Of a stretch of DNA of 55,930 nucleotides, positions 3-49,566 are shown piece by piece (within the stretch, counting starts at the first letter, position 1; every line of letters starts with the position of its first letter). The translations under genes were made by a program, and so were the position numbers. Origin of the DNA: an uncultured virus (IMG/VR IMGVR_UViG_3300037419_002203) (lineage: Duplodnaviria; Heunggongvirae; Uroviricota; Caudoviricetes); the IMG/VR virus record IMGVR_UViG_3300037419_002203, positions 62,001 to 117,930 of that record. The stretch is one strand, 5' to 3'. The notes under the pieces were generated by a model. That model was not told the DNA's origin. It did not search any database and saw only the letters and a program-made list of their open reading frames with translations.

Positions 3-1181
3 GCGCAAGCCCACGGGCAGGCGATCGCCAAGCGTCCCAACCAGCTGCACGCGCACCGCTGGGGTGCCGCGGCCAAGGTGGCCGGTGCCGACCGCGTCAC
101 GCCCGGTATGCTGGAGATTCACCCCGAGGGCAACGTGGCCGCACGCCTCGCCCAGCTCTTCGACTGCGTGCCCGGTGCCACGGGCGGTTGGGCCGACCTG
201 GAGGGCCGCCAGCTGATGCTGCTGCGCCACCCGTTCATCCTGGGCTACGTGGTCACGATCGGGTTCAACGAGAACCTGACCAAGAACCTCACCCTGGTCA
301 ACCGCCTAGACGGCCGCCGCGCCACCGGCATGGACTTCGACGGTGATCAGGTGTTCCTGTTCGCCATCAAGAGCCGCATCATGGCGGCGATGATCGACGC
401 CGAGATCAAGGCGGTCGTGCCGGACAACGACGCCACCAAGCTCGTGCTGGGCAAGCCCTGCGAGGAGCCCGGCGGCGAGTGGTGGGGCGAGCTGTTGGAG
501 AAGTCCACCGAGCAGAAGCTCGATCAGAAGTTCACCAAGACCATCGGCGAGTGGATCAACTCCCACATCACGATGGGCGACTACGCCAACAAGTTCACGC
601 CCTTCGCGTACCGCATCAGCGACATCGGGGGTGCGATGGCTGCCGTGGGCATCCCTGGTGCGCGCGAGATGTCGCTGATCGGCGCCACGATCGAGGAGAC
701 CTTCTACCTGGGGCTGTCTGGCGGTCCCAAGGAGCTGGACGAGGCCATGGAGACCTGGTTCCGCAAGAAGATGAGCGCTGCCAACCAGCGCATCCTCTTC
801 GCGGGGCTGCGCACCGTGGTCAACCCGGACCTGCTCGCCAACGCGGATGTCCGCACGGCGATCGCCCGCGGGTCGGCCATCAACGGCGGTCGCTTCGACG
901 ACTGCGACCCGCAAGAGCTGCTGGTCCACACCGCCTTCCTGGTCGGTAAGGGCAAGCTCACCCTGGGCAGCGGCGTGCTGCTCGACCAGCTGGCCCTGAT
1001 CGCCAGCGAGCCGACGCTGTCGGCCGAGCTGCGCGAGTCGTTCGTCGCGCGGATGCTCTTCCACGCGGCGCGCAAGCTGCACCAGGTGGTGGGCAAGGGC
1101 AATCCCATCGTGGGCGAGACCCCGAGCGATGACTACGAGGCCGATGGCTTCGAGGAGTACACCTCCGACTTCGAGGAGTAA
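3..1181 (+). CDS. Two-barrel (double-psi beta-barrel) RNA polymerase, beta'-like/YonO-like catalytic region; 5' truncated by window edge
   Basis: Frame is open from base 3. LMLLRHP (RHP at 225-233) is followed by GMDFDGDQVFLF (DFDGD at 333-347), matching the order of the RpoC NRxP and NADFDGD motifs. Acidic C-terminal tail. Confidence 0.75.
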   Translation, partial: AQAHGQAIAKRPNQLHAHRWGAAAKVAGADRVTPGMLEIHPEGNVAARLAQLFDCVPGATGGWADLEGRQLMLLRHPFILGYVVTIGFNENLTKNLTLVNRLDGRRATGMDFDGDQVFLFAIKSRIMAAMIDAEIKAVVPDNDATKLVLGKPCEEPGGEWWGELLEKSTEQKLDQKFTKTIGEWINSHITMGDYANKFTPFAYRISDIGGAMAAVGIPGAREMSLIGATIEETFYLGLSGGPKELDEAMETWFRKKMSAANQRILFAGLRTVVNPDLLANADVRTAIARGSAINGGRFDDCDPQELLVHTAFLVGKGKLTLGSGVLLDQLALIASEPTLSAELRESFVARMLFHAARKLHQVVGKGNPIVGETPSDDYEADGFEEYTSDFEE

Positions 1182-2338: not shown

Positions 2339-2934
2339 GGCACGCGGGCTGGGCCGTGGTGGGATTGGCCTTCTTCGGACTCACGTTCGCCGTGGGTCAC
2401 CAACCCGTTGCCCAGCCCACCCACTGGGTCCAGGGCAACGACCTGCTCGACGAGCACAGCACCCACGGCGAGGGCAACCTCCAAGCCGTGCGCGGTACCG
2501 TGGACCGGGTGGGCACCAAGGTGACGGGCAGCCGCACCATCCACCTGATTGCCGATGATGGTGCGCCCATCCTGATCAGCGTACCACCCACCGTAAGCGT
2601 GCGGATGCCCAAGAGCGGCGATCGCATCGGCGTGGTGGGCAGCGTCATCACGCCCGGCACGCTCACCCTCAACGGTCGCGACCAGCTGCAGTTCCTGCCG
2701 CCCGCCACCAACAGCTCGCGCCGTCGCGAGTACTTCGCCCAGCTGGAGAACATCGAACGTCTCCCGTCGGGTGCGCACCGCGCCACGGTGGTGGGCGTGC
2801 ACGGCGAGTTCGTGACGACCGCCCTGATTCAGGCTGGCATCGCGATTCCCCACAAGAAGTGGGCCGACTCCGGCTACATGATGAAGGGCTACGTCGGCAG
2901 CGACGGCACCTACGTGGTGGAGTCGCTGGAATGA
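2335..2934 (+). CDS. Membrane-anchored or exported protein, possible OB fold
   Basis: N-terminal hydrophobic segment; GTVDRV...GDRIGVVG pattern; ATGA overlap with next gene. Confidence 0.6.
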   Translation: MRHAGWAVVGLAFFGLTFAVGHQPVAQPTHWVQGNDLLDEHSTHGEGNLQAVRGTVDRVGTKVTGSRTIHLIADDGAPILISVPPTVSVRMPKSGDRIGVVGSVITPGTLTLNGRDQLQFLPPATNSSRRREYFAQLENIERLPSGAHRATVVGVHGEFVTTALIQAGIAIPHKKWADSGYMMKGYVGSDGTYVVESLE

Positions 2935-4169
2935 TCGCCCTCGTCCTGGCCGCGGCCTTCGGTACGCTCGCAGGACTGCTGTCCGCGCTGCCGGGGCTGC
3001 ACATCTCCATCCTGCTCATCGGGGCGTTGCCCCTGCTGGGTGTCAACGGGCCAGTGGGTGCCGTGGTGTTGGTCACGGCCATCGGATCGGGGCTGATCGC
3101 GAGCAACCTCGCCAAGACCTTTCACCCGGCCACGGCCGACACCATCCGCTCGGCCACACCCGAGCAAATTCTTGCATATCGGGGGGACGGTCTCAAAGCG
3201 GTGGGCATCCAGCATCAGGCGGTGTGGGCAGGCGTCCTCACCGTTCTGATGCTGGCCGCTGTTTTGCTGCCGTTGCGCACCCTGATCGGGACCGGTTTCG
3301 CTGCCGTGATCACCACGGTCACCGGCTGGTTGGTCCTGCCCCTGTTGCTCCTGTTCACGGGGCTGGTCGTGCGCCAGGCGAAGCACAAGCTTCCCACGGT
3401 GGCGGTCATCATCCTGGCAACAGGGCTGGGGTTCTACACCCTCAACTGTGCTGCCCTCACGGGCAACCACAACGCGCTCGCCCCTCTTTTGGGTGGCGGC
3501 TTCGCGCTTCCCGCGCTTGCGATGGTCGTGCTCCATCGCGGAAGGGTCCAACCCTTCCCCAAACAGCGTGTGGTCAACAGCGCTGCGAAGCCTGCCCCCG
3601 AACAAGTGTGGGGCGCGCTCGGTGGGATCGCGACGGCGCTGACCGCGGGCTTGGGCTCCGGCGGCGCCGTCTCGGTCTTCGCCGACCAGGTCAACCACGA
3701 AGAGTACCTGGGCATGCACACCGCATCGGAAGCCGCGAACCATGTGTTCGCCGTGCTCCTCTTCATCCTGGTTGGGACGACCCACTCGGGTACCGGCGTT
3801 GCCTTGCGGCAACAACTGGTGAGTCCCGGCCTCGCCATGAGCTTGCTGCTCCTCGTCGCGCTGGCGTTGAGCACGTTCGTGGCGCACTACGTTGCACAAC
3901 AAGTAGTAGGGAGGTACGTCTCATGCATTGGTAGGATTCCCCAACGGTCGGCCGCGATGGTCATCACCGTTGTGACCTTGGCACTGCTCTTCACCGAGAC
4001 CGGCCTGGCAGGGATCGCTGTTGCGATCGCCGCTGCCGCGTTGGGCTGGTGTGCCAAGACAAACTTCGTTCCGAACCAGGCGATGACTTTCACCCTGACG
4101 GGTCCGGTCCTCGTCTACCATCTGGGTCTCTCTGGTTGGTTGGCATCGCTGCTGCACGTTCTTCACTAG
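2931..4169 (+). CDS. TctA/DUF112-like multi-pass membrane protein
   Basis: N-terminal GTLAGLLSALPGLH motif typical of TctA/DUF112; many hydrophobic helices. Confidence 0.6.
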   Translation: MIALVLAAAFGTLAGLLSALPGLHISILLIGALPLLGVNGPVGAVVLVTAIGSGLIASNLAKTFHPATADTIRSATPEQILAYRGDGLKAVGIQHQAVWAGVLTVLMLAAVLLPLRTLIGTGFAAVITTVTGWLVLPLLLLFTGLVVRQAKHKLPTVAVIILATGLGFYTLNCAALTGNHNALAPLLGGGFALPALAMVVLHRGRVQPFPKQRVVNSAAKPAPEQVWGALGGIATALTAGLGSGGAVSVFADQVNHEEYLGMHTASEAANHVFAVLLFILVGTTHSGTGVALRQQLVSPGLAMSLLLLVALALSTFVAHYVAQQVVGRYVSCIGRIPQRSAAMVITVVTLALLFTETGLAGIAVAIAAAALGWCAKTNFVPNQAMTFTLTGPVLVYHLGLSGWLASLLHVLH

Positions 4170-4875: not shown

Positions 4876-5436
4876 ATGACCACGCGTTCCACCCGCACCG
4901 CCAACACCGGCACCGAGATCGTCAAGGAGTCGGCCGAGAACATCGAGGCTGCCCCTGCCACCGACGGCCAGGTTGCCGCCACCGAGAAGGACGCCGAGAA
5001 GAAGGCGCCCGGCCCCAACGCCTACGTGGGCAACATCATGCACCTCAAGCGCGAGACCAAGTCCACCGGCAAGGCGTACGCCTTGGTGATGGTGCGCTTC
5101 GTCAACGGCCAGGAGATCGCGCAGAAGGCCGTGCAGGTCTTCCCGCGCACCGAAGGCTTCACCAGCCAGGTCGGCGACATGTTCGGCTTCGAGGCCAAGC
5201 GCCTCGTGGAAGCCTACGACAACGACGACAAGCCGATGAAGCTGGAGGACGGCACGCCCGTCTACCGCGCGTCCGGCGTGGGTCCCGAGCTGAAGCACTT
5301 CACGGTGCGGGCGACCGGCAAGGCCGCCAGCGTGGAGCCGACCGGCGAGATCAAGTCCAACGGCTTGCGCGAGCGCCTGGCGAAGGCGTCCCCGCTCATG
5401 GCCAAGTTCTTGGGCGTCAAGTTCGAGAACTCGTAA
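4876..5436 (+). CDS. Hypothetical protein, possible OB-fold nucleic-acid-binding protein
   Basis: GAAAGGAG SD, biased codons, starts MTTR with acidic leader like 1584-2105. Confidence 0.75.
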   Translation: MTTRSTRTANTGTEIVKESAENIEAAPATDGQVAATEKDAEKKAPGPNAYVGNIMHLKRETKSTGKAYALVMVRFVNGQEIAQKAVQVFPRTEGFTSQVGDMFGFEAKRLVEAYDNDDKPMKLEDGTPVYRASGVGPELKHFTVRATGKAASVEPTGEIKSNGLRERLAKASPLMAKFLGVKFENS

Positions 5437-5446
5437 GCTCCACCTT

Positions 5447-5476
5447 GAGTAGGGTCGTGGTAACATGACCCTACTC
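5447..5476 (+). other. GTAA-capped 13-bp stem-loop before the tRNA-like array
   Basis: GAGTAGGGTCGTG-GTAA-CATGACCCTACTC. Confidence 0.7.
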
Positions 5477-5486
5477 TCCTCTTCAA

Positions 5487-5558
5487 GCCTGGCGAGTCAG
5501 TGAGGAACGACATGCGGTTGAAACCCGCAGGGACCACGTTCGAGTCGTGGGCCAGGCA
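5487..5558 (+). tRNA. tRNA-Phe(GAA)-like, atypical D arm, no encoded CCA
   Basis: Acceptor GCCTGGC/GCCAGGC; anticodon stem TGCGG/CCGCA with loop TTGAAAC; T arm CCACG-TTCGAGT-CGTGG. Confidence 0.75.
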
Positions 5559-5561
5559 CTA

Positions 5562-5620
5562 GATCACTCTGTACCAACTAATCTCCTTCGGGAGGGCAGG
5601 TGGGCTCCTACAGAGTGGTC
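5562..5620 (+). ncRNA. Unassigned long hairpin RNA between tRNAs
   Basis: GATCACTCTGTA/TACAGAGTGGTC basal stem; apical CTCC-TTCG-GGAG. Confidence 0.5.
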
Positions 5621-5629
5621 GACCTTCAT

Positions 5630-5705
5630 GGGTAGGTGGTCCAGTAAGCAGGACGCGAGTGTGAAAAGCTCGGGGCACCGTGTGCAATTCCGGTCCTACC
5701 CACCA
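5630..5705 (+). tRNA. Degenerate tRNA-like gene, anticodon GAA, bulged T stem, encoded CCA
   Basis: GGGTAGG/CCTACCC-A-CCA; D stem GTCC/GGAC; anticodon stem CGAGT/GCTCG with loop GTGAAAA; T arm ACCG(T)G-TGCAATT-CCGGT. Confidence 0.65.
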
Positions 5706-5708
5706 TTT

Positions 5709-5782
5709 CCTCGGGACGCCGATGGTCGGCAGGCGCTACCAGAACATGCGCCCTCTAGGTGGTTCGATTCCATCCCCGAGGA
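5709..5782 (+). tRNA. tRNA-like gene with 11-nt anticodon loop (undetermined isotype)
   Basis: CCTCGGG/CCCGAGG; D stem GCCG/CGGC; anticodon stem GGCGC/GCGCC with loop TACCAGAACAT; T arm GGTGG-TTCGATT-CCATC. Confidence 0.65.
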
Positions 5783-5796
5783 CTTACACAACTCAC

Positions 5797-5967
5797 GGGC
5801 GTGTCAGCACCCTATCCGGCGGGTGCACCCGTGTCGTGACCCTAGCAGGATGACACCCTACGAAGGTCTAAGCTACACTGTCCCAGGCGGTGTGAAAGCC
5901 GTGTTCTGGGGTGTTAACAGCGTAGTGATGGCACGGGAGGTGGCGGGTTCAAATCCCGTCGCGCCCA
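5797..5967 (+). ncRNA. tRNA-like scaffold with ~90-nt structured insertion in the anticodon arm
   Basis: Acceptor GGGCGTG/CGCGCCC; 6-bp D stem GCACCC/GGGTGC; 10-bp stem 5828-5837/5928-5937; T arm GCGGG-TTCAAAT-CCCGT. Confidence 0.7.
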
Positions 5968-5976
5968 CCCCTTTCT

Positions 5977-6123
5977 CTGGAAGTAGCTCAGCGGTAGAGC
6001 ACGCGCATTTCGCCCATAGCTCAGTGGTAGAGCGCGCCCCAGTGAGGGGTGAGGTCCCCGGTTCGAATCCGGGTGGGCGAGCCAACGGCGCGCGGGGCGG
6101 TGGTTCAAGTCCATCCTTCCAGA
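5977..6123 (+). tRNA. Outer tRNA-like gene interrupted in its anticodon loop by a complete tRNA
   Basis: 5' half CTGGAAG-TA-GCTC-AGCGGTA-GAGC-A-CGCGC (5977-6006); 3' half GCGCG...GGTGG-TTCAAGT-CCATC-CTTCCAG-A (6088-6123). Confidence 0.75.
6010..6084 (+). tRNA. Inner nested tRNA, anticodon GTG (His-like but A33 and no G-1), encoded CCA
   Basis: TCGCCCA/TGGGCGA-G-CCA; canonical TAGCTCAGTGGTAGAGC D arm; loop CAGTGAG; T arm CCCGG-TTCGAAT-CCGGG. Confidence 0.8.
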
Positions 6124-6130
6124 CCTTCCT

Positions 6131-6204
6131 CCACGAGATGTCCGACGGTCGGGCGCGCCAGTTGCACTTTGGCGTCTTAGGTGGTTCGATTCCATCCTCG
6201 TGGA
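6131..6204 (+). tRNA. tRNA-Cys(GCA)-like with 9-nt anticodon loop (or 6-bp stem)
   Basis: CCACGAG/CTCGTGG; anticodon stem CGCCA/TGGCG with loop GTTGCACTT; T arm identical to 5709-5782. Confidence 0.65.
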
Positions 6205-6212
6205 CTACTGAC

Positions 6213-6250
6213 AGGGGACATGTGCCAGTGACACATGTCCCCTTTGTTTT
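6213..6250 (+). terminator. Intrinsic terminator ending the tRNA-like array
   Basis: AGGGGACATGTG-N7-CACATGTCCCCT followed by TTGTTTT. Confidence 0.8.
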
Positions 6251-6454
6251 TCCGGCGGCGCGCCATCGATACAGTCACGACCTGTGCCAGTGTCACTGGT
6301 GCAGCGATGGGCTTCTTTTGTGTGGCTTCGAGCCTTTAATGTGCTTCTAGCGTGCATCTACAGGCTCGATCCGTGTCAGAAGAGAGCCATTACTGCAGGG
6401 ATGGGCTAGTGTCATTTGACACTAGCTTTGGCACTGCCAAGTATGGTAGACTCG

Positions 6455-6519: not shown

Positions 6520-7092
6520 GTGACCTTGATGCTACCACAGAACAACAGGGGTGACAAGCCCTATGACGTTCCACGGAACCTGCAGTCCAACTACACCAAC
6601 ATCCACTGGGACAAGTTGCCTCCGGGAGCTGTGGCGGTGTTGTCACTGGGTAGTGACACTGCTAACTTCGAGACGTTGTACTACTTGGCAGCGTGTATGG
6701 CACGTCTACCAGGTCGACACCGACCCCGTGTCGAAGCTGCATTGGATCTTTGGGTAGCGGGCAACAAACGCCTCGAACCCCTAGTGACACCTGCAGTACG
6801 TCGTGCGTTCGAGACGGTCTTCGCCAACAGCAAAGGAGCACCCCCTGTGTCCAAGAATCTCACCGCTAATGAGAAACGTATATTCGCGGCCCTGACTAAT
6901 CTTCAGCCATCGCCCCACGAGATCTTCGAGGTTAGCTATAAGCAAATCGCGGAAGAATCTGGTGTTCCCATAAGGAGCGTGATTAGGTCCGTCAAGAAGA
7001 TGGCAGAGGTGCGGGGTGCCATCGAGATGGCTCCACCAGAACCCGGTAATCCGCACGCCAGCAACGCTTACAGGATTCCCGAGGAAAAGTAG
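6520..7092 (+). CDS. Winged helix-turn-helix protein (replication-initiator/HTH_36-like)
   Basis: LTANEKRIFAAL...VSYKQIAEESGVPIRSVIRSVKKM...NAYRI; codon usage more AT-rich than neighbours. Confidence 0.65.
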   Translation: MTLMLPQNNRGDKPYDVPRNLQSNYTNIHWDKLPPGAVAVLSLGSDTANFETLYYLAACMARLPGRHRPRVEAALDLWVAGNKRLEPLVTPAVRRAFETVFANSKGAPPVSKNLTANEKRIFAALTNLQPSPHEIFEVSYKQIAEESGVPIRSVIRSVKKMAEVRGAIEMAPPEPGNPHASNAYRIPEEK

Positions 7093-11540: not shown

Positions 11541-11948
11541 GTGCCCAGCTTGACCTTCCGCATTCACTATTCTCCCCTGCTGCCCAATGTGCAGCCCAAC
11601 ACCACCGAAGCGCAGTTGGCGCAGACCTTCGAGCACATCCAGAACCTCATTCGTGGGATCGCTGCGCTCGACAGCAACATCACCTGCGTTCAGCTCGAAC
11701 GCTATGACGTGCACGAGCAGTTCATCAACGACGAGCCGGCGATCACGGACTTCAGCGCGATGCTGAACGACGTGATGCTCTTGGGTCTCGTCCAGACCCA
11801 CAACATCAAGCAGTTCATGACCGACCTGGGCGACGCCCTGCGTTGGCTCATCGAGGATGAGAACAACCCATTCGACGCCCTCCCCTTCAACGAGGAGGAG
11901 ATCCAGCAGATCGTCGGCGCTTACCGGGAGCTGTACGGTGAAGGCTAA
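11541..11948 (+). CDS. Hypothetical protein
   Basis: AAGGAG SD and GTG. Confidence 0.65.
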   Translation: MPSLTFRIHYSPLLPNVQPNTTEAQLAQTFEHIQNLIRGIAALDSNITCVQLERYDVHEQFINDEPAITDFSAMLNDVMLLGLVQTHNIKQFMTDLGDALRWLIEDENNPFDALPFNEEEIQQIVGAYRELYGEG

Positions 11949-12291
11949 GTTCAAGGGGTGCACGCCACCCACCCGCCAACAACTGCTGGACGCGGGCTTC
12001 GATCCCAAGCGCCCCATCCAGTCCAGCATCCAACGCTGGAACGACGAGAAGCACTGCACCTGGGTCTTCACCCAGGACGAGAAGCCCAAGTTCGACTACG
12101 ACTACCGTCGTGCCGTGCGCAAGGTCTACCCCAAAGCCGACGCCTACGACTACGGCGGGCGCGATGGTTGGTTGGTGCTGGTGCCCAGCGAGGACGACGA
12201 CAAGCCCTCCGAAGCCATAGGGCAAGGCAACACCGCCGCGCTCGCGTGGCTCGACGCGTTCAACCAGTTGCCGAAGGAGAAGAAGTCATGA
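11938..12291 (+). CDS. Hypothetical protein
   Basis: Overlapping start, biased codons. Confidence 0.65.
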   Translation: MKAKFKGCTPPTRQQLLDAGFDPKRPIQSSIQRWNDEKHCTWVFTQDEKPKFDYDYRRAVRKVYPKADAYDYGGRDGWLVLVPSEDDDKPSEAIGQGNTAALAWLDAFNQLPKEKKS

Positions 12292-19793: not shown

Positions 19794-20459
19794 ATGACCC
19801 ATCTCCAGGAAGTCACCCACCCGCTCTGGTTCCATCACGGTAACACGACAGGTACCGAGTTGTTGACCATCCGGTACCCCGCTCTCGACAAGTGCCCAGC
19901 CTTCGCCCGGTCGTTCCAAGCAGTGACGTTCACGGGTGAAGAGCACATTCTGCGGCTGTTGACCGCCGTGGATGCGTTGTTCTCCTACGCGACGAAGTAC
20001 CCGAACGCGCAGGCTACGCACGAAGGTACCTGGGGATCGGTCACCAGCAAGAACGATGGCCTCTTCTACCTCCAGGACAACCAGAAGAATGTGTTCCCGG
20101 TCAACCTGTTCGGGCTGTACCACATCGTGGACAGCTTCTGTACGGGTGAACACTCAACAATGCAGCGGCTTACCAGGGTGGTCAACGCCCGTCAGGAGCG
20201 CGCGCTGTACCCACCTACCCAGCAGTTAATCGACCAACTCGTGAAGGTGACCGAGGATGTGGGTGCTCGTCTGAACGGCGTGAGGTTGCGCGCCGACTTC
20301 GCTGATACCACGGCGCGTTTGATCGAACGCGCGGGTCAGCTCGACTCGCTCAATCGTGGGTTGCTGGACCTGATCGAGGCTTACGGGCTCAAGCCTTCAC
20401 CCAAGTACAACAACTACGATGCCTGGCGCATCTCCAAGATCATCGCGGAGGCCAAATGA
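19794..20459 (+). CDS. Hypothetical protein
   Basis: Start-associated motif and ATG. Confidence 0.7.
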   Translation: MTHLQEVTHPLWFHHGNTTGTELLTIRYPALDKCPAFARSFQAVTFTGEEHILRLLTAVDALFSYATKYPNAQATHEGTWGSVTSKNDGLFYLQDNQKNVFPVNLFGLYHIVDSFCTGEHSTMQRLTRVVNARQERALYPPTQQLIDQLVKVTEDVGARLNGVRLRADFADTTARLIERAGQLDSLNRGLLDLIEAYGLKPSPKYNNYDAWRISKIIAEAK

Positions 20460-20917
20460 GTGTTCACCTGATCGCGGAGTTCAAAGGGAAGTACCACTTC
20501 CTGAGCAACTTCTACATCGCGCCGGTTACCCTCTGGCACCCGCTGTTCGGCGAACAGCGTTACCCCACGACCGAGCACGCCTACCAGGCAGCGAAGTGCG
20601 AGAACCGCGAAGGCCACGATCTGATCCAAGTGGCGGGCACACCGGGCAATGCCAAGCGCATGGGTGCCATTGCCAAGCTGCGACCGGACTGGGAGCAGAT
20701 CAAGGACAACGTCATGACGGCGGTCGTCGGGGCCAAGTTCGCCCAGCACGATGCGCTGCACGCGCAGCTACTCGCAACCGGTGATGCCTACCTGATGGAA
20801 GGCAACGAGCACGGCGATAAGATCTGGGGCTGCGTGGAGCACGTCAGCGGCGAATGGATAGGCGAGAACCGACTGGGTCGGATTCTCATGAAGCTGCGGA
20901 AGGAGCTGCGCGGATGA
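20456..20917 (+). CDS. NADAR (YbiA-like) family protein
   Basis: FLSNFY...YPTTEHAYQAAK...KFAQH...LLATGD...D.IWG...GENRLGRILM. Confidence 0.92.
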   Translation: MSVHLIAEFKGKYHFLSNFYIAPVTLWHPLFGEQRYPTTEHAYQAAKCENREGHDLIQVAGTPGNAKRMGAIAKLRPDWEQIKDNVMTAVVGAKFAQHDALHAQLLATGDAYLMEGNEHGDKIWGCVEHVSGEWIGENRLGRILMKLRKELRG

Positions 20918-27250: not shown

Positions 27251-27448
27251 GCGCGGAGCAGGCACGCCGCGTCGGCGTTGGTTTGGTGGGCATCGTTGAC
27301 ACGCTCTTGGCGCTTGACGATGCCCGTTTTCTTGCCGCTCTCCAGGAACTGCCGGAGACCGCCCTAAACGGGCTGTTGACTGGTTGGAGGGGCGGTGCAT
27401 TCACCCGCCGTTACACCGATCTGGTTCTCGAAAGGAGCCCTTCCGCCC

Positions 27449-28600
27449 ATGAGCACCCCCACCATCGTTGACAACAAGGTCGAGGTCCGCGTCTGCTTCG
27501 ACACGACGGGATCTATGTCCCCGTGCATCATGCAAGTGCGGCGCGTGGCCCGCGAGATGCTGACCCGCCTTGCCAAGGACGTCCCCGGCATCCGCATGGG
27601 CATCACCGCGCACGGCGACTACTGCGACGATCCGGCGAGCGCCAGCGGTTACTACAGCCGTGGCAGCTACGTCACCAAGCACTCCGCCATGACCAGCGAC
27701 ATCAACTCGATCGTCAGCTTCATCGACAACGTGGGCAACACCGGCGGCGGTGACTCCGACGAGTGCTACGAGCTGGTGCTGAAGGAAGTCCAGGACCCCG
27801 CGATGGGCTGGACGCCTGGCTACAAGCACATCCTCGTCATGATCGGCGACGCCGAGCCGCACGAGCCGGGTTACCGCTACGGTGGCAAGACCTACGACAT
27901 CAACTGGCGCCACGAGGCCAAGAAGCTGGCCGACCAGGGCGTCAAGATCTACTCCGTCCAGGCGATGAGCTACAGCCGCTCGCGCAACTTCTGGTCGGAG
28001 ATCGCGAAGATCGGTGGCGGCCACCACATCACGCTGGACCAGTTCGCCTACATCACGGACATGTTGCTCGCGATCTGCTACCAGCAGCAAGGCCCCGAGG
28101 CGCTCTCCAAGTTCGAGACCGAGCTGCGTACGGCGGGTCGCTTGGGTCGCAACATGGCCACCGCGATCGGCACGCTCGCCGGGCGGTCGGTCGAGGCCAT
28201 CAAGGAAGCCACCACCAAGACCTTCGGCGATCCCGGTAAGCTGCGTGCTTGCGACCCCAGCCGCTTCCAGGCGTTGGAGATCGACGCGGATGTCCGCATC
28301 GACCAGTTCGTCGAGGGCAACGGCATCCCGTTCATCAAGGGCCGCGGCTTCTACGAGTTCATGAAGCGCGAGGAGATCCAGTCCTACAAGGAAGTCATCC
28401 TGATGGACAAGGCGTCCGGCGACCTCTTCGAGGGCGACGTGGCGCGCGAGATGCTGGGCCTCCCCAAGGACAAGACCGTCAAGCTCAGCCCGAAGGAAGT
28501 GGACCTGGGCAAGTACACGGCCTACATCCAGTCGACCAGCTACAACCGCAAGCTGATTGGCGGGACAAAGTTCCTGTACGAGGTTGACCGCACGCGCTAA
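27449..28600 (+). CDS. von Willebrand factor A (vWA) domain protein
   Basis: MIDAS DTTGSM; HGDYCD; GGGD..ECYE; MIGDA.PH. Confidence 0.88.
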   Translation: MSTPTIVDNKVEVRVCFDTTGSMSPCIMQVRRVAREMLTRLAKDVPGIRMGITAHGDYCDDPASASGYYSRGSYVTKHSAMTSDINSIVSFIDNVGNTGGGDSDECYELVLKEVQDPAMGWTPGYKHILVMIGDAEPHEPGYRYGGKTYDINWRHEAKKLADQGVKIYSVQAMSYSRSRNFWSEIAKIGGGHHITLDQFAYITDMLLAICYQQQGPEALSKFETELRTAGRLGRNMATAIGTLAGRSVEAIKEATTKTFGDPGKLRACDPSRFQALEIDADVRIDQFVEGNGIPFIKGRGFYEFMKREEIQSYKEVILMDKASGDLFEGDVAREMLGLPKDKTVKLSPKEVDLGKYTAYIQSTSYNRKLIGGTKFLYEVDRTR

Positions 28601-33868: not shown

Positions 33869-34597
33869 GTGAGCAAGCCCATGATCAACCTCAAGAAGAC
33901 CGAGGTTGAAGACCTTCGCAAGTTCTCCGTCGAACCTGTTCTCACCAACATGAAGGTGCTGGACGTAGTGTGCAACGTCGTGTTGGTGTTGGACGACTCC
34001 GGCTCGATGGAGCACGAGTACGAAGAGGGCCACGTCCAGCTCGTCGCCGAGCGTGCGCTCGCCCTGGCCATGGTCTGGGACGCCGACCAGAAGGTCGACA
34101 TCTTCACCCTCAACCGCGGCTTCATCGGCACGATGTCCCCCGACTCGTTCAAGGGCTGGGTCGGTCGCAATATCCGTGCATTCGGCGGGACCCCGTACTC
34201 GACCGTCATCCGCCAGATCGTGGAGCGCTACGGTCAAGTCTTCCTAAAGGGCTTCTTCGCCAAGTTGCGCACCCTCTTCGGCGCCAAGGAAGCTCCCGTA
34301 CTCCCCACCTACGTCCTCTTCGTGACGGACGGTGACTGTACCGACCAACCCGAAACGACCTCGATGATCGCCCAGCTCATTGGCGGTCCCATCTTCATCC
34401 AGTTCGTGGGCTTGGGTGAAACCACCTTCTCGTACCTCAAGACCATGGACCGCCGCAACACCAGCTTCTTCATCCTCCCCTGCGAGGAAGAAGACGCGGT
34501 CGTGGACGATGGCTGGCTCTACCAGAACCTCGCCCGCGGCTTCAGCAACTGGCTGAAGAACCGTCAGGGCACGGGCAGTGTGGTCGGGAAGGACTAA
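33869..34597 (+). CDS. vWA protein, TerF-like vWA family
   Basis: LVLDDSGSM...GGTPY...YVLFVTDG...PIFIQFVGLG. Confidence 0.8.
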   Translation: MSKPMINLKKTEVEDLRKFSVEPVLTNMKVLDVVCNVVLVLDDSGSMEHEYEEGHVQLVAERALALAMVWDADQKVDIFTLNRGFIGTMSPDSFKGWVGRNIRAFGGTPYSTVIRQIVERYGQVFLKGFFAKLRTLFGAKEAPVLPTYVLFVTDGDCTDQPETTSMIAQLIGGPIFIQFVGLGETTFSYLKTMDRRNTSFFILPCEEEDAVVDDGWLYQNLARGFSNWLKNRQGTGSVVGKD

Positions 34598-37724: not shown

Positions 37725-38846
37725 ATGAGCACCGTCCGCACCACCATCGAGCGTCTGGTCAACGTCCGGCCGCACACCAACTCTGACAACCTGAACCTCG
37801 CCATCGTGCGTGGCTGGCAAATGGTCATGAACGACCGCAACGCGGAGAACCCGCGTAAGACCGGCGACCTGGTCGTTTACTTCGAGGCGGGCACCGTGCT
37901 TCCGTTGAAGTGGGCCGAGAAGTTCGAGGTCGTCAACTACCTCTCCAACAAGACGGACATCGAGGGCAACAAGGTCTTGGTGGTCGGCAAGGTCCGCTTG
38001 CGGGGCGAGCCCAGCTTCGGTCTCACGGTTCCCGTCGCCGAGGCGCTGGCCCTGATGGACGAGCCGGACACCGCGGTTCTGTTCGAGGGCGACGACGTGT
38101 CGCACCTCTTCGGCACCAGCAAGTACCGGCCGCCGGTCAAGGCGAGCGCGGGTGACGCCGAGGAGGATCACCCGCACTTCCAGCCCTACACCGACATCGA
38201 GAACCTGCGCAACTTCCCCAACATCATCGAGGAAGGCGAAGAGGTCACCTACCGCGAGAAGCTGCACGGCACGAACTGTCGCGTGGGCTTCGTGCGCTGT
38301 GACGAAGATCCCAACTGCATCGTCCGCATGGCGGGCTCGCGCGAACTGCGGCGCAAGGCGCCCAAGACCGACGACGAGATGGCCGCCAACACCTACTGGT
38401 TCCCGTGGACGCTGGAGTCGGTCAGCTTGATGCTCAGCCACCTGGGTATTCAAGGTAACCAGAGCGCGACGCTGTACGGTGAGGTCTACGGTGGTGGCGT
38501 CCAGAAGGGCTTCGACTACGGCCACAAGCGTCCGCAGTTCCGCGCCTTTGACCTGTCGGTCAACGGCAAGTACCTGGACGATCCCGAGTTCGAGGCGCTG
38601 TGCCAGGAGTTCGGTATCGAGGTGGCGCCGCTCGCGTACCGCGGTCCCCACAACATGGCCAAGCTCAAGGAGCTGGCTGAAGGCAAGACGGCCATCGAGG
38701 GTGCCACGCATATCAGCGAGGGCATCGTCGTAACCCCCACCAAGGAGCGTGTCCACCCGCAGGTGGGTCGCGTGATCCTCAAGTACGTGTCGGATGCCTA
38801 CCTCTTCCGCAAGGGCGGGGATGACGACGACACGACCGACGTGTAA
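37725..38846 (+). CDS. RNA ligase, DRB0094/Rnl2 family with N-terminal OB domain
   Basis: HTNSDNL...LRGEPS.G N-domain; motif I EKLHGTN; YGEVYG; FD; EGIVV; ILKYVS. Confidence 0.9.
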   Translation: MSTVRTTIERLVNVRPHTNSDNLNLAIVRGWQMVMNDRNAENPRKTGDLVVYFEAGTVLPLKWAEKFEVVNYLSNKTDIEGNKVLVVGKVRLRGEPSFGLTVPVAEALALMDEPDTAVLFEGDDVSHLFGTSKYRPPVKASAGDAEEDHPHFQPYTDIENLRNFPNIIEEGEEVTYREKLHGTNCRVGFVRCDEDPNCIVRMAGSRELRRKAPKTDDEMAANTYWFPWTLESVSLMLSHLGIQGNQSATLYGEVYGGGVQKGFDYGHKRPQFRAFDLSVNGKYLDDPEFEALCQEFGIEVAPLAYRGPHNMAKLKELAEGKTAIEGATHISEGIVVTPTKERVHPQVGRVILKYVSDAYLFRKGGDDDDTTDV

Positions 38847-43315: not shown

Positions 43316-45529
43316 TTGTCCTGCGAGATTCGCCTTCGCACCGACATCTATGACGAGCCCATGGCCGCCTTCTTTAGGATGGTCCCGGCCGTTCACAAAC
43401 AGAACCTGCCAGATGGTCGGCTCATGTACACGTTCTACGGCGACGAGGGTTACCGGGTCTTCGTAGATACCGCCAACTGCCAGATCCAGGTCTGGGAGCA
43501 GTCACAAGAGTTCGATGATGACGACTTCGGCGCCCACATGAGGCGCAAAGACCCTTGGAGCTTCTCGTTCACCAGTATCTCGGCCGACGAGATCGTGAAG
43601 CGTCTGCGCAAGACGGCGCACGAGCTGATCTCCGACACCATCAAGAGCGAGCTGAACCTCGATCCCAAGTTGGGCACCGTCCAGATCACCATGGACATCC
43701 CCTATGAAGTGGGGACCTGGCTCAAGCGCGGTATGGCGCCTTCCCTCGCAGGTCGCATGACGGGTGATGCTCGCAACGAGGACATCTACAGGTATCTGGT
43801 ACCCAAGTGGGTGGCCGAAGGTGCCGTCAACTTCGCCCAGGAGATGCGACACTCGCGTTACAGCTACAGCCTGGCGGTCCTGAACTTCTACTGGGCGCAT
43901 CACGAGGTCATCAAGGAGATCAAGACCAAGTACCCTCGGCTCTACAAGTACCTGCCCGAGTACCTGTCCAACGGGCACGAACGCGCGGGTGTGACGCAGG
44001 CAGAGAAAGACGCTGCCCGCCAGAACTGGGACCGCAAGCGCAAGTCTCTGATCACGGAGCTGCGCAACTACGTGATGTGGAAGTGCAAGCTCACCAAGAG
44101 CGAGTTGGCCGAGTGGTTGGAGCTGGACGAGCAGAAGTTCGTCTGGATGACCAAGTACGGCGCCGACATGGGTTACGGCGTGGCGCTGGACGTGATCCGG
44201 GCAACCGGTCGCACTCCTGCCATGACGGGTCTCGATACCCTCAACCGCTTCTGGCGTGACGTGCACCACCGCTACACCATCGTGGACTCCGCTTTCTTGC
44301 GGCAGCTCTTCGTCGAGGCGCTGAAGCAGTCCATCAAGCGGCGCCACCGCATGGGCATCGCCCAGTGGCTGGAGCTGGAGTGGGGCCAGGTCGCCGACTG
44401 GTACCGCGCGGCGGGACGGGCATTCCGTCCCGACAAGAACCAGAAGGGCGCCAAGTGGAGCTGGTTCGTCCGTCACTCCGAAGAGTGGCACGACCAGCAA
44501 GCCATCGCCAAGATGGACGCCAGCACGCCCACCGACGAGTGGACGTCGCTGATTCCCCAGCACGTCGCGGGCGACTTCCTGTTCGTGCCGATGCTCTCCA
44601 ACAAGGATCTCCACATCGAGGGCGAATCGCAGGCGCACTGCGTCGGCGGATCGACCTACGTGGAAGGCTCCAAGCGAGGCGACATGTTGATCTGGTCGAT
44701 CCGCACGCGCGAGAACAACCGCGTCGCGACACTCCAGCTCAACAAGCGCGTCGACAAGGTCAAGGTGAAGGACGAGAACGGTCAGGACAAGGAGGTCGAC
44801 AAGATCGTCTGGCTCCGCGGCCAGTGCCTCGGTAAGCGCAACTCCCAGATCGAACCGGCTACCAGTGCGGCAGCCGACGACCTGATCAAGCGCTACAACC
44901 AGCACCAGAGCATCGACTGGGAAGCCGAGCGCGAGCGCGATCAGCTTGCCTACGAAGCCAAGAAGAAGGCAGCCGTCGAGAAGGCACGCAAGGCGGCGAA
45001 GCACACCAAGCGCGTCGAGAAGCTGCTGAAAGAAAACCCGCTGATGCCGCTGGACCAGGCACGTCAGCTCGCAGCCGAGCAGATTGCCACGGAAGAGCGC
45101 GAGAAGGCGGAGAAGGAGCGCAAGAAGGTGGACGATCAGGGCCGTGTGCTCTCGATCGTGGACAGCGAGACCGACGAGGTTCCGCCGCCCATCACCGACG
45201 CCGAGCCCGGTTGGGTTTGTCCCGGTGTCGAGCCTCCCGAACAGCTCACGCAAGCCGCCCAGGAGTTCCAGGAAGCCGTCGTGGCGCTCGAAGCTCCTCC
45301 GGCACCCCCGGAGGTCGAGGACACCCCGGACGACGTTCCTGACGGCTTTCAACGGCTAGTAGAACAGGCGTTGGGGGACGAGCCCGAACTCGAACTGCCG
45401 CCCGCGCCTGAACGGACCATGGACGAGATGATCGCCCGACACAACGAACAACTCGCCGAAGCGCTGGATGCGCCTACAGCATTGGTTAACCATCCCCAAG
45501 ATCCCCAACCGGTTGATGCCGCGGCCTAG
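43316..45529 (+). CDS. PcfJ-like domain protein with acidic C-terminal tail
   Basis: L..EG..QAHCVG..Y...IWSIR...ATL...Q..GKRN. Confidence 0.7.
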   Translation: MSCEIRLRTDIYDEPMAAFFRMVPAVHKQNLPDGRLMYTFYGDEGYRVFVDTANCQIQVWEQSQEFDDDDFGAHMRRKDPWSFSFTSISADEIVKRLRKTAHELISDTIKSELNLDPKLGTVQITMDIPYEVGTWLKRGMAPSLAGRMTGDARNEDIYRYLVPKWVAEGAVNFAQEMRHSRYSYSLAVLNFYWAHHEVIKEIKTKYPRLYKYLPEYLSNGHERAGVTQAEKDAARQNWDRKRKSLITELRNYVMWKCKLTKSELAEWLELDEQKFVWMTKYGADMGYGVALDVIRATGRTPAMTGLDTLNRFWRDVHHRYTIVDSAFLRQLFVEALKQSIKRRHRMGIAQWLELEWGQVADWYRAAGRAFRPDKNQKGAKWSWFVRHSEEWHDQQAIAKMDASTPTDEWTSLIPQHVAGDFLFVPMLSNKDLHIEGESQAHCVGGSTYVEGSKRGDMLIWSIRTRENNRVATLQLNKRVDKVKVKDENGQDKEVDKIVWLRGQCLGKRNSQIEPATSAAADDLIKRYNQHQSIDWEAERERDQLAYEAKKKAAVEKARKAAKHTKRVEKLLKENPLMPLDQARQLAAEQIATEEREKAEKERKKVDDQGRVLSIVDSETDEVPPPITDAEPGWVCPGVEPPEQLTQAAQEFQEAVVALEAPPAPPEVEDTPDDVPDGFQRLVEQALGDEPELELPPAPERTMDEMIARHNEQLAEALDAPTALVNHPQDPQPVDAAA

Positions 45530-48624: not shown

Positions 48625-49566
48625 ATGTTCGAGCGGTACACCGAGAACGCCATTAAGGCGATCATGCTCGCCCAGGAAGAGGCTCGTCGTCTCGGCCACA
48701 ACTACGTCAGCACGGAGTTTGTCCTGTTGGGGTTGATCGGTTTGGGTGAGAACAGCCCGGTCTACCGTGCCTTGGTGAAGTTGGGCGTCAGCTCGCCTCT
48801 CAAGACTGCGCGTCTTTTGGTCGAGCAGAGGGTCGGCAAGGGCTCCGGCTTCGTTGGGGTCGAGCTGCCCTTCACGCCACGCATGAAGCGCTCGATCGAA
48901 GTCTCGTGGAACACCGCCCGCGAGCTGGGCCACAACTACATCGCGCCGTTCCACGTCCTGTTCGCCATCATCGCGGAGGAAGAGAGTACAGCGCGTGCCG
49001 TGCTGTTCGACATGGGCATCATCGACCTGGAGACGTTCAAGTCGCTGGTCGTGGACGAGGCTTCGCGTGCTGCAGTTGCCAAGACCGACAGCATCTTGCA
49101 GGCGGTCAACGAGAAGCGTACCGCCGACGAGCGTCGGAACGAGAAGCAGTGTGCGTGGGACAAGAGCTACATGGCGATGGCCCATATCATCGCTGGTCAC
49201 TCTCACGACCCCAAGTTCAAGGTCGGTGCCATCGTCGTCAACGACCTCAACGGCGCCATCGTCGGTCTCGGCTACAACGGTCGCGGCAAGGGTCGTCCCA
49301 ACGACCGTCTCTCGATGGAAACGGGCCAGAGCGGCTTCGTCCACGCCGAGATGAACGCCATTGCCCGTGTCTCGTGGGAGATGACGTGTACCTACACGCT
49401 CTACACCACCCTGGCGCCCTGCATGGTCTGCGCGGGTCTGGTTCTGAACAACCCCATCAAGCGGGTCGTCTACGGCCAGATCTACAACGATGACAAGACC
49501 GGCGTCGAAGAGCTGATTGGCGGCTTGGGGGCGCATCTCGTCCACCATTGTCCGCACCATTCCTAA
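48625..49566 (+). CDS. ClpC N-terminal (Clp repeat) domain fused to dCMP-deaminase domain
   Basis: MFERYTENAIKAIMLAQEEARRLGHNY...PFTPR; then WD..YM...KVGA...GYNG...HAEMNAI...PCMVC. Confidence 0.88.
   Translation: MFERYTENAIKAIMLAQEEARRLGHNYVSTEFVLLGLIGLGENSPVYRALVKLGVSSPLKTARLLVEQRVGKGSGFVGVELPFTPRMKRSIEVSWNTARELGHNYIAPFHVLFAIIAEEESTARAVLFDMGIIDLETFKSLVVDEASRAAVAKTDSILQAVNEKRTADERRNEKQCAWDKSYMAMAHIIAGHSHDPKFKVGAIVVNDLNGAIVGLGYNGRGKGRPNDRLSMETGQSGFVHAEMNAIARVSWEMTCTYTLYTTLAPCMVCAGLVLNNPIKRVVYGQIYNDDKTGVEELIGGLGAHLVHHCPHHS

Follow-up and report, generated by a model that had tools for sequence, protein, structure and literature searches.

What does a phage gain from a row of tRNA-shaped RNAs, most of which could hardly decode, when a normal set of tRNA genes lies elsewhere in its genome? 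The question is raised by an array of 804 bases in the window, the stretch of 55,930 nucleotides analysed here, which forms the last 56 kb of one virus record (G000, 117,930 bases). The original prediction, made from the letters alone, had described seven cloverleaves with mostly non-canonical anticodon arms. The present study confirms the array, finds it well in excess of chance expectation and shows it to be more unusual than that description; the functions discussed for it are proposals drawn from sequence.

Two further IMG/VR contigs are ~99% identical to G000. One of them, G001, is 205,180 bases long with terminal repeats and 100% estimated completeness, and its 63-149 kb part is absent from G000. 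Phage replication genes are present in the genome. In G001 the array site lies 11-12 kb from the left end, behind polymerase-like genes and ~72 kb from a canonical tRNA cluster, a position that would correspond to an early-expressed region. The DxDGD protein (Table 1), which from its motif we take to be the catalytic subunit of an RNA polymerase, has no Pfam or NCBIfam match. The 186-aa ORF in front of the array, for which a database search returned its own sequence only, is probably co-transcribed with it. A promoter scan found nothing upstream of the array and a single weak + strand site, inside the T4 insert. Elsewhere in the window (48625-49566), a ClpC-type Clp N-terminal domain is fused to a cytidine/dCMP deaminase domain. 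Since the closest solved structure to this Clp domain is chloroplast ClpC1 (139 vs 104 bits for the next) and a cyanobacterial genome encodes a protein with 57% identity to it, a host of cyanobacterial lineage is probable. The window also holds NADAR, two vWA (one TerF-like) and PcfJ-like genes (20456-20917, 27395-28600, 33869-34597 and 43316-45529), which are of the stress and conflict accessory type of large phages.

Table 1. Features of the array and of its genomic surroundings, in window positions
Feature	Position	Strand	Remarks
DxDGD protein, C-terminal part (phage protein of ~500 aa)	78..1181	+	motif invariant among 19 relatives
Orphan ORF, 186 aa, directly upstream of the array	4876..5436	+	no named family
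GTAA-tetraloop hairpin, 13 bp, head of the array	5447..5476	+	z -6.63
T1, tRNA-Phe(GAA)-like, canonical 7-nt loop, G8, without encoded CCA	5487..5558	+	
H2, non-tRNA hairpin, 12-bp outer stem, inner UUCG hairpin	5562..5620	+	z -3.1; no Rfam family
T2, Phe(GAA)-like, G32, bulged T stem, UGCAAUU T loop, without D-loop GG, encoded CCA	5630..5705	+	Rfam 43.9 bits
T3, 11-nt anticodon loop, A8, 5-bp D stem, 3-nt D loop, paralogue of T7	5709..5782	+	
T4, 6-bp D stem, 8-bp anticodon stem, 94-nt structured insert replacing the loop	5797..5967	+	z -3.7
T5, outer tRNA of the nest	5977-6123	+	two halves flanking T6
T5 5' half: acceptor strand, D arm, anticodon stem strand, A32-U33-U	5977..6009	+	
T6, complete inner tRNA, A33, anticodon GUG, encoded CCA	6010..6084	+	Rfam 56.7 bits
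T5 3' half: remaining loop, anticodon stem strand, T arm, acceptor strand, A73	6085..6123	+	
T7, GCA cloverleaf, G32, 9-nt loop, A8, 6-bp D stem, A73	6131..6204	+	
Intrinsic terminator-like hairpin, T-rich tail	6213..6251	+	
ORF of 190 aa, C end winged-helix-like by eye	6520..7092	+	no Pfam match
RNA ligase, DRB0094/Rnl5 family	37725..38846	+	TIGR02306 160.2 bits, cut-off 151.15

The seven cloverleaves lie on the + strand where they had been predicted, flanked as proposed by the GTAA hairpin (z -6.6) and by the terminator. Six of the seven have aberrant anticodon arms, including the 11-nt loop of T3, the 9-nt loop of T7, A33 in T6 and G32 with a bulged T stem in T2, all of which had been foreseen. 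T1 is the canonical exception and the sole unit with a normal arm (loop UU-GAA-AC), and T7 may alternatively be drawn with a 7-nt loop closed on a longer stem. T4 and T5 each carry an insert in the anticodon loop, with halves that still pair. One of the two large inserts of the original prediction stands, namely the 94 nt of T4 (5836-5929), which contain no T loop and match no Rfam family; the other 'insert' turned out to be a complete tRNA, T6, nested in T5. From identity elements (U1-A72, G73) and blastn matches, we take the body of T6 to be Asn-type. T5 has no clear identity and, unlike T6, shows no sign of an Asn or His type.

Two smaller observations concern the loops. In the T4 insert (5851-5927), pairings 5851-5858/5909-5916 and 5872-5881/5917-5926 cross when read by eye, so that a pseudoknot or a switch is possible. 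The triplet GAA stands in four hairpin loops, those of T1, T2, T3 and the T4 insert (5518-5524, 5661-5667, 5737-5747 and 5890-5897), and the loop in the T4 insert resembles that of T2, which could point to mimicry of tRNA-Phe or be due to chance.

Are these cloverleaves more than patterns drawn by a willing eye? All 153 hand-assigned stem pairs of the units form (144 Watson-Crick, 9 G-U, no mismatch). A strict T-arm motif matches seven times in the 804 bases, at six true T arms and the anticodon arm of T1; it matches twice in the other 234 kb of G000, both strands counted, and dinucleotide shuffles gave a mean of 0.003 and a maximum of 1 in 1000. This density is far above chance. Detection by standard tools was partial: default ARAGORN called three of the seven units and Rfam two at gathering score, and relaxed ARAGORN settings produced noise (12 calls with -ps90, four of them in the array). 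Since standard tools call the inner tRNA only, nested genes are missed in annotations. Rfam scores for tRNA-Sec were 25.7 and 19.1 against a cut-off of 47; ribozyme, group I intron, tmRNA and Y RNA models came nowhere near their cut-offs in the array, and no intron or ribozyme model was among the 15 Rfam matches at E up to 10. Furthermore, an assembly artefact is unlikely, because the nest is also present in the two other contigs, where its inner tRNA differs by three substitutions.

The canonical cluster of the same phage serves as an internal control. This second cluster of G001, at 84-88 kb, gave 32 ARAGORN calls that include every array anticodon (Phe-GAA, Asn-GUU, His-GUG, Cys-GCA, Arg-ACG). 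Codon supply by the array is therefore unlikely, and the earlier proposal that it does not supplement codons gains support. Aberrant anticodon arms occur in 6/7 array units vs 3/32 tRNAs of the cluster (Fisher p 1.7e-4), and these three comprise two C33 loops and one doubtful call. Conversely, a 7-nt loop with pyrimidine 32 and U33 is found in one array unit (T1) vs 29 of the 32. The same control removed two supposed peculiarities. U8 is indeed missing in three of the seven units, but this is not special, as 7/32 cluster tRNAs also lack it. Likewise, the 8-bp acceptor stem can no longer be regarded as a special trait, with U at -1 in 21/32 and U-1 facing A73 in 8/32 cluster tRNAs. Encoded CCA is found in three of the 32.

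The cluster has its own oddities. One is an RNA of 82 nt (G001:C1:85320-85401; L168 5320-5401) that ends in ACCA and resembles only the tRNA-like domain of tmRNA (Rfam tmRNA 43.2 bits, E 4.7e-15, cut-off 47); a tag reading frame would not fit in it. Others, at G001:C1:86272-86405 and 84786-84928, comprise an Ile(GAU)-like 5' part that continues into long hairpins replacing a normal T arm, and further structured spacers.

How the array varies bears on whether its shape is under selection. G000 and G001 differ by five substitutions within 5447-6127, one in the T3 D loop, one in the T4 insert and three in the T6 anticodon arm, where a G-U pair becomes A-U and positions 36 and 38 change, turning GUG into GUU. 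None of the five breaks a pair, a weak result (chance P ~0.14, computed with one insert stem mis-specified). A decoding tRNA should not tolerate GUG and GUU on the same body in 99%-identical strains. The paralogues T3 and T7 have identical T arms and differ by two compensatory changes in the acceptor stem and at least one in the anticodon stem; this covariation, the sole test of its kind, was reached by 18 of 500 shuffles and rests on three sequences, two of them nearly identical. Thus, the claim that shape is maintained rather than decoding draws support from the excess of aberrant arms, from the strain-variable T6 anticodon and from the T3/T7 changes, whereas the parts of the argument built on U8 and on 8-bp acceptor stems fail.

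Could the array instead be a collection of dead tRNA genes, once captured, then reshuffled by chance cleavage and ligation in their anticodon loops and now drifting without function? The redundancy of all array anticodons, the drift of the T6 anticodon, the dispensable T7 and the outer T5 without clear identity would fit such an origin, as would restored loops that range from 4 to 16 nt across the viral nests among the matches listed (see below). Free decay would be expected to affect stems too, yet no mismatch is seen in 153 pairs despite changed conserved loop positions in most units, and T3 and T7 changed in compensation. Stems could persist in a relic if the events were recent or if an unprocessable RNA were mildly harmful. 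We consider this explanation unlikely.

The site itself is variable. T7 and the terminator of G000 are replaced in G001 by a different structured RNA. This GC-rich RNA (L001 5255-5400; G001 ~11945-12090) has its own terminator-like end and matched nothing in Rfam at E up to 5. Searching with the flanking proteins among viral contigs recovered the two near-identical contigs, and blastn of the array against 50,697 phage records gave short tRNA matches only. These searches brought to light no diverged version of the array; the phage set and 401 genomes from the cyanobacterial phylum likewise gave no match, and a DNA search of 201 genomes of the cyanobacterial class gave ordinary tRNAs only. An alignment of the polymerase-like protein retrieved three metagenome loci, none with a tRNA call, of which L182 alone (42% identity in that protein) reaches the matching site, flanked by a likely homologue of the 190-aa ORF. 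There, L182 has ~450 hairpin-rich, non-coding bases (2720-3170) with GTAA loops and a similar terminator; their Rfam search gave weak miRNA-type hairpin matches only.

These exchanges recall another possibility, in which the cloverleaves are processing punctuation, that is, cut sites or protective ends that release functional small RNAs or stabilise the upstream mRNA. H2, the T4 insert and the RNA that replaces T7 in G001 would be the passengers. Non-tRNA structured RNAs do stand between and inside the cloverleaves, T7 was exchanged for one, and the L182 site is a structured RNA without tRNA call. Moreover, the acceptor/T corner, which suffices for processing, is intact. However, the successive units from T3 to T7 are separated by spacers of 6-14 nt, which leave no RNA to be released, hairpins of a similar kind also separate tRNAs in the canonical cluster, and no Rfam family fits the passengers. 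On balance, such a role appears improbable.

The nest is the most unusual part of the array. T6 sits flush in the T5 anticodon loop, from base +1 to its own CCA with 0-1 extra base, and both ~99%-identical contigs carry this insert as well as that of T4. Four pattern scans of viral contigs, with 346 loci screened among the matches listed, showed that it is not alone. In-silico excision of 617 distinct tRNAs gave at least 26 junction-spanning calls, against 0/32 when each tRNA of the main cluster was removed. Six cases without a credible D arm in the 5' half and two with uninterpretable loops (0 and 25 nt) were dropped, and two near-identical pairs were merged, which left at least 16 distinct viral flush nests, the present phage included. 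Among the matches listed, exact removal from +1 to CCA leaves 7 nt in 5/16 and 8 nt in 5/16 (this phage among them), and 6, 6, 4, 9, 10 and 16 nt in the others, a loop-length peak that is partly built in because the scan patterns favour short offsets. The five 7-nt nests among the matches listed restore Lys-UUU twice (once with C33), Asn-GUU, Gln-UUG and Arg-UCU, and inner and outer tRNAs are usually of different types. Inner tRNAs have encoded CCA in 10/14 nests vs 130/380 other viral tRNAs (p 0.008; among the matches listed, the 14 nests coming from scans that did not require CCA). A related pattern run over 185,579 prokaryote genomes gave 52 matches and a single nest, which has extra flanks and lies in a Saccharibacteria genome; by this crude pattern and screen, nests look mainly viral.

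Some loci deserve mention in their own right. In L438 (7221-7347; G010), a nest lies far from the main tRNA cluster and its inner Ile(GAU) duplicates a cluster copy, as in this phage. L029 (1190-1380) has a tRNA between a 5' half and two apparent T-arm 3' pieces in a row; the nesting there may have several layers. In L017, L026, L027 and L020, the last being a giant-virus record, duplicated 5' halves precede tRNAs with short anticodon-loop inserts.

Because the nests have flush boundaries and an excess of CCA, which few tRNAs of this phage's main cluster encode, their origin was probably at the RNA level: a mature CCA-ended tRNA would have been ligated into a cut anticodon loop and the product copied into DNA. 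No reverse transcriptase was found in the five records searched, G001 included, so a host enzyme would be needed for the copying.

A nest could also be read as a tRNA-shaped intron, with T6 removed from T5 and two tRNAs obtained from one gene. RNase P would cut the 5' end of T6, a 3' endonuclease would cut behind its CCA, and the phage ligase would join the 3'-OH and 5'-phosphate ends of T5; the T4 insert would be removed another way, and T1, T2 and T6 would be working, nuclease-resistant tRNAs. That T6 serves as an intron here is doubtful in our estimate. Exact removal of T6 gives a T5 loop of 8 nt (6 nt in the other register) and not 7. A cut at -1, where U-1 of T6 can pair with G73, gives the 7-nt loop A-U-ACG-G-C and an ARAGORN score of 120, inside the canonical-cluster range of 102-129, but this product has A32, duplicates the Arg-ACG of the main cluster and lacks A20, an Arg identity element. 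None of eight tested deletions in T4 gave an ARAGORN call. Elsewhere, the same reading fares better: 5/16 viral nests among the matches listed do recover a 7-nt loop on exact removal, against 11/16 that are not restored to exactly 7 nt. Three exact nests lie in records whose tRNA calls include no intact gene of the outer type (G006, complete, 5 calls; G007 and G009, fragments, 24 and 12 calls). The exact nests include L006, L329 and L394. L006 and L291 share an Asn tRNA in a Lys tRNA at 36/37 and differ at five acceptor and two anticodon-stem pairs, all of them paired across the halves when checked by hand.

The enzymes speak on both sides. The Rnl5 ligase gene lies 31 kb from the array; the closest solved structure to its product is Naegleria RNA ligase, and it is a candidate for joining or repairing tRNA halves, with a 3'-OH/5'-phosphate chemistry that matches the intron route. 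In contrast, the available part of one report describes Rnl5 as a sealer of duplex nicks, not a joiner of loop ends, and calls its physiological functions uncharted (PMC5397189). Similarly, there are RNase Z and RNase E enzymes that cleave immediately after CCA, whereas Bacillus RNase Z is strongly inhibited by it, according to the accessible portion of another (PMC7479834). PF09414 is no commoner in nest-bearing records (7/15) than in others (11/23), many of which are fragments; in the same, often fragmentary, records RtcB occurs in 1/15 vs 1/23 and T4-type Rnl1 in 0/15 vs 8/23. A link of PF09414 to a subset of nest-bearing records chosen post hoc (5/7 vs 2/8, ~0.13 by hand) was rejected. The intron reading thus has its greatest appeal for the five exact nests and less for the nest of this phage. 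The general form of the idea is that phages use whole mature tRNAs as introns, excised by ordinary tRNA-maturing nucleases and followed by sealing of the outer halves by a phage RNA ligase, with no dedicated splicing nuclease or ribozyme. We regard it as a long shot; under it, the window would hold a divergent example in a mimic cassette, and the five exact nests, from unrelated viruses, would be the cleanest.

A tRNA within a tRNA is not unprecedented, because one tRNA intron of Lak megaphages may itself encode a tRNA, as stated in the text available of Devoto et al. 2019 (PMC6784885; preprint 10.1101/356790). There, as far as that text goes, the inner tRNA follows ~30 nt of extra sequence and lacks CCA, whereas T6 is flush from +1 to CCA. 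By our own reading of its Table S6, Lak introns have a 5' hairpin and end in a T-loop minihelix; the T4 insert has no T arm and T6 no extra hairpin, so the Lak layout is not found here. Unlike in the available Lak account, the whole array is aberrant and redundant. Group I introns also occur in tRNA genes and are far longer than the 94-nt T4 insert. HDV-like theta ribozymes beside phage tRNAs (PMC10879173, available part) share with the array a structured RNA near phage tRNA genes, and no ribozyme match was found here. L-arrays such as the Anabaena trn operon are mobile, supernumerary and redundant, with 3/26 tRNAs called pseudogenes and 23/26 aminoacylated in the accessible part of that study (PMC8421152). 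This mostly charged picture fits the canonical cluster of G001 and not the seven-unit array. A survey of viral structured RNAs lists, in its available part, tRNA-like candidates without function (PMC10690425). Beyond the Lak paper, no flush tRNA-in-tRNA nest or non-decoding tRNA decoy array in phages appeared among the matches listed of a literature search that covered little of the subscription literature. The array can be likened to tRNA-derived counter-defence or to an intron-bearing tRNA region, and departs from both a decoding cluster and the Lak layout.

Counter-defence is the direction in which we lean. Tentatively, and ahead of the other explanations, we propose that the array encodes host-processed, non-decoding tRNA mimics that act as decoys. 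In this 205-kb phage it would form an accessory RNA cassette, set apart from the decoding tRNA cluster and transcribed with upstream genes up to the terminator. Host RNase P and a 3' processing nuclease would cut at the intact acceptor/T-arm corners and yield tRNA-shaped RNAs, most of which, their anticodon arms being spoiled, would be unable to decode. Processing of T6 would leave T5 as two base-paired halves, in the form of a tRNA whose anticodon loop has already been cleaved. Such shapes may be kept since tRNA-recognising host proteins would bind them. Most likely, they would act early in infection by competing with genuine tRNAs for anti-phage effectors that cleave or sense tRNA, the least secure step of the scheme.

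In favour of mimics, all stems are paired while loops drift and anticodons are redundant, and the site is swappable, with T7 replaced in G001 and a non-tRNA structured RNA in L182. Phage tRNAs are, moreover, known counter-defence tools, and those described in the available parts of two reports have altered anticodon loops and a plausible counter-defence role in common with the array (PMC11555353, PMC10264068). They are, however, working or proposed working tRNAs that replenish the pool, whereas most array units cannot plausibly decode and a normal set lies elsewhere. In the case tested in the former report, as far as its accessible text goes, protection needed a working tRNA, and changes to the anticodon or stem-loop abolished it (PMC11555353), which argues against decoys. 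Furthermore, the array may be a mixture, given the normal loop of T1 and the possible charging of T2 and T6. The canonical cluster contains odd tRNA-derived pieces too, and the phage may simply gather them.

Considering that one genome holds two classes of tRNA, a decoding set and a set in which shape and not decoding appears to be kept, this phage offers a built-in control for asking whether such RNAs are counter-defence mimics, and bears on the long-standing question of why phages carry tRNA genes. In addition, its nest and the five 7-nt viral nests would provide short, defined substrates on which RNase P, a 3' nuclease and a ligase could be assayed for bacterial tRNA splicing, as well as a candidate RNA substrate for the Rnl5 ligases.
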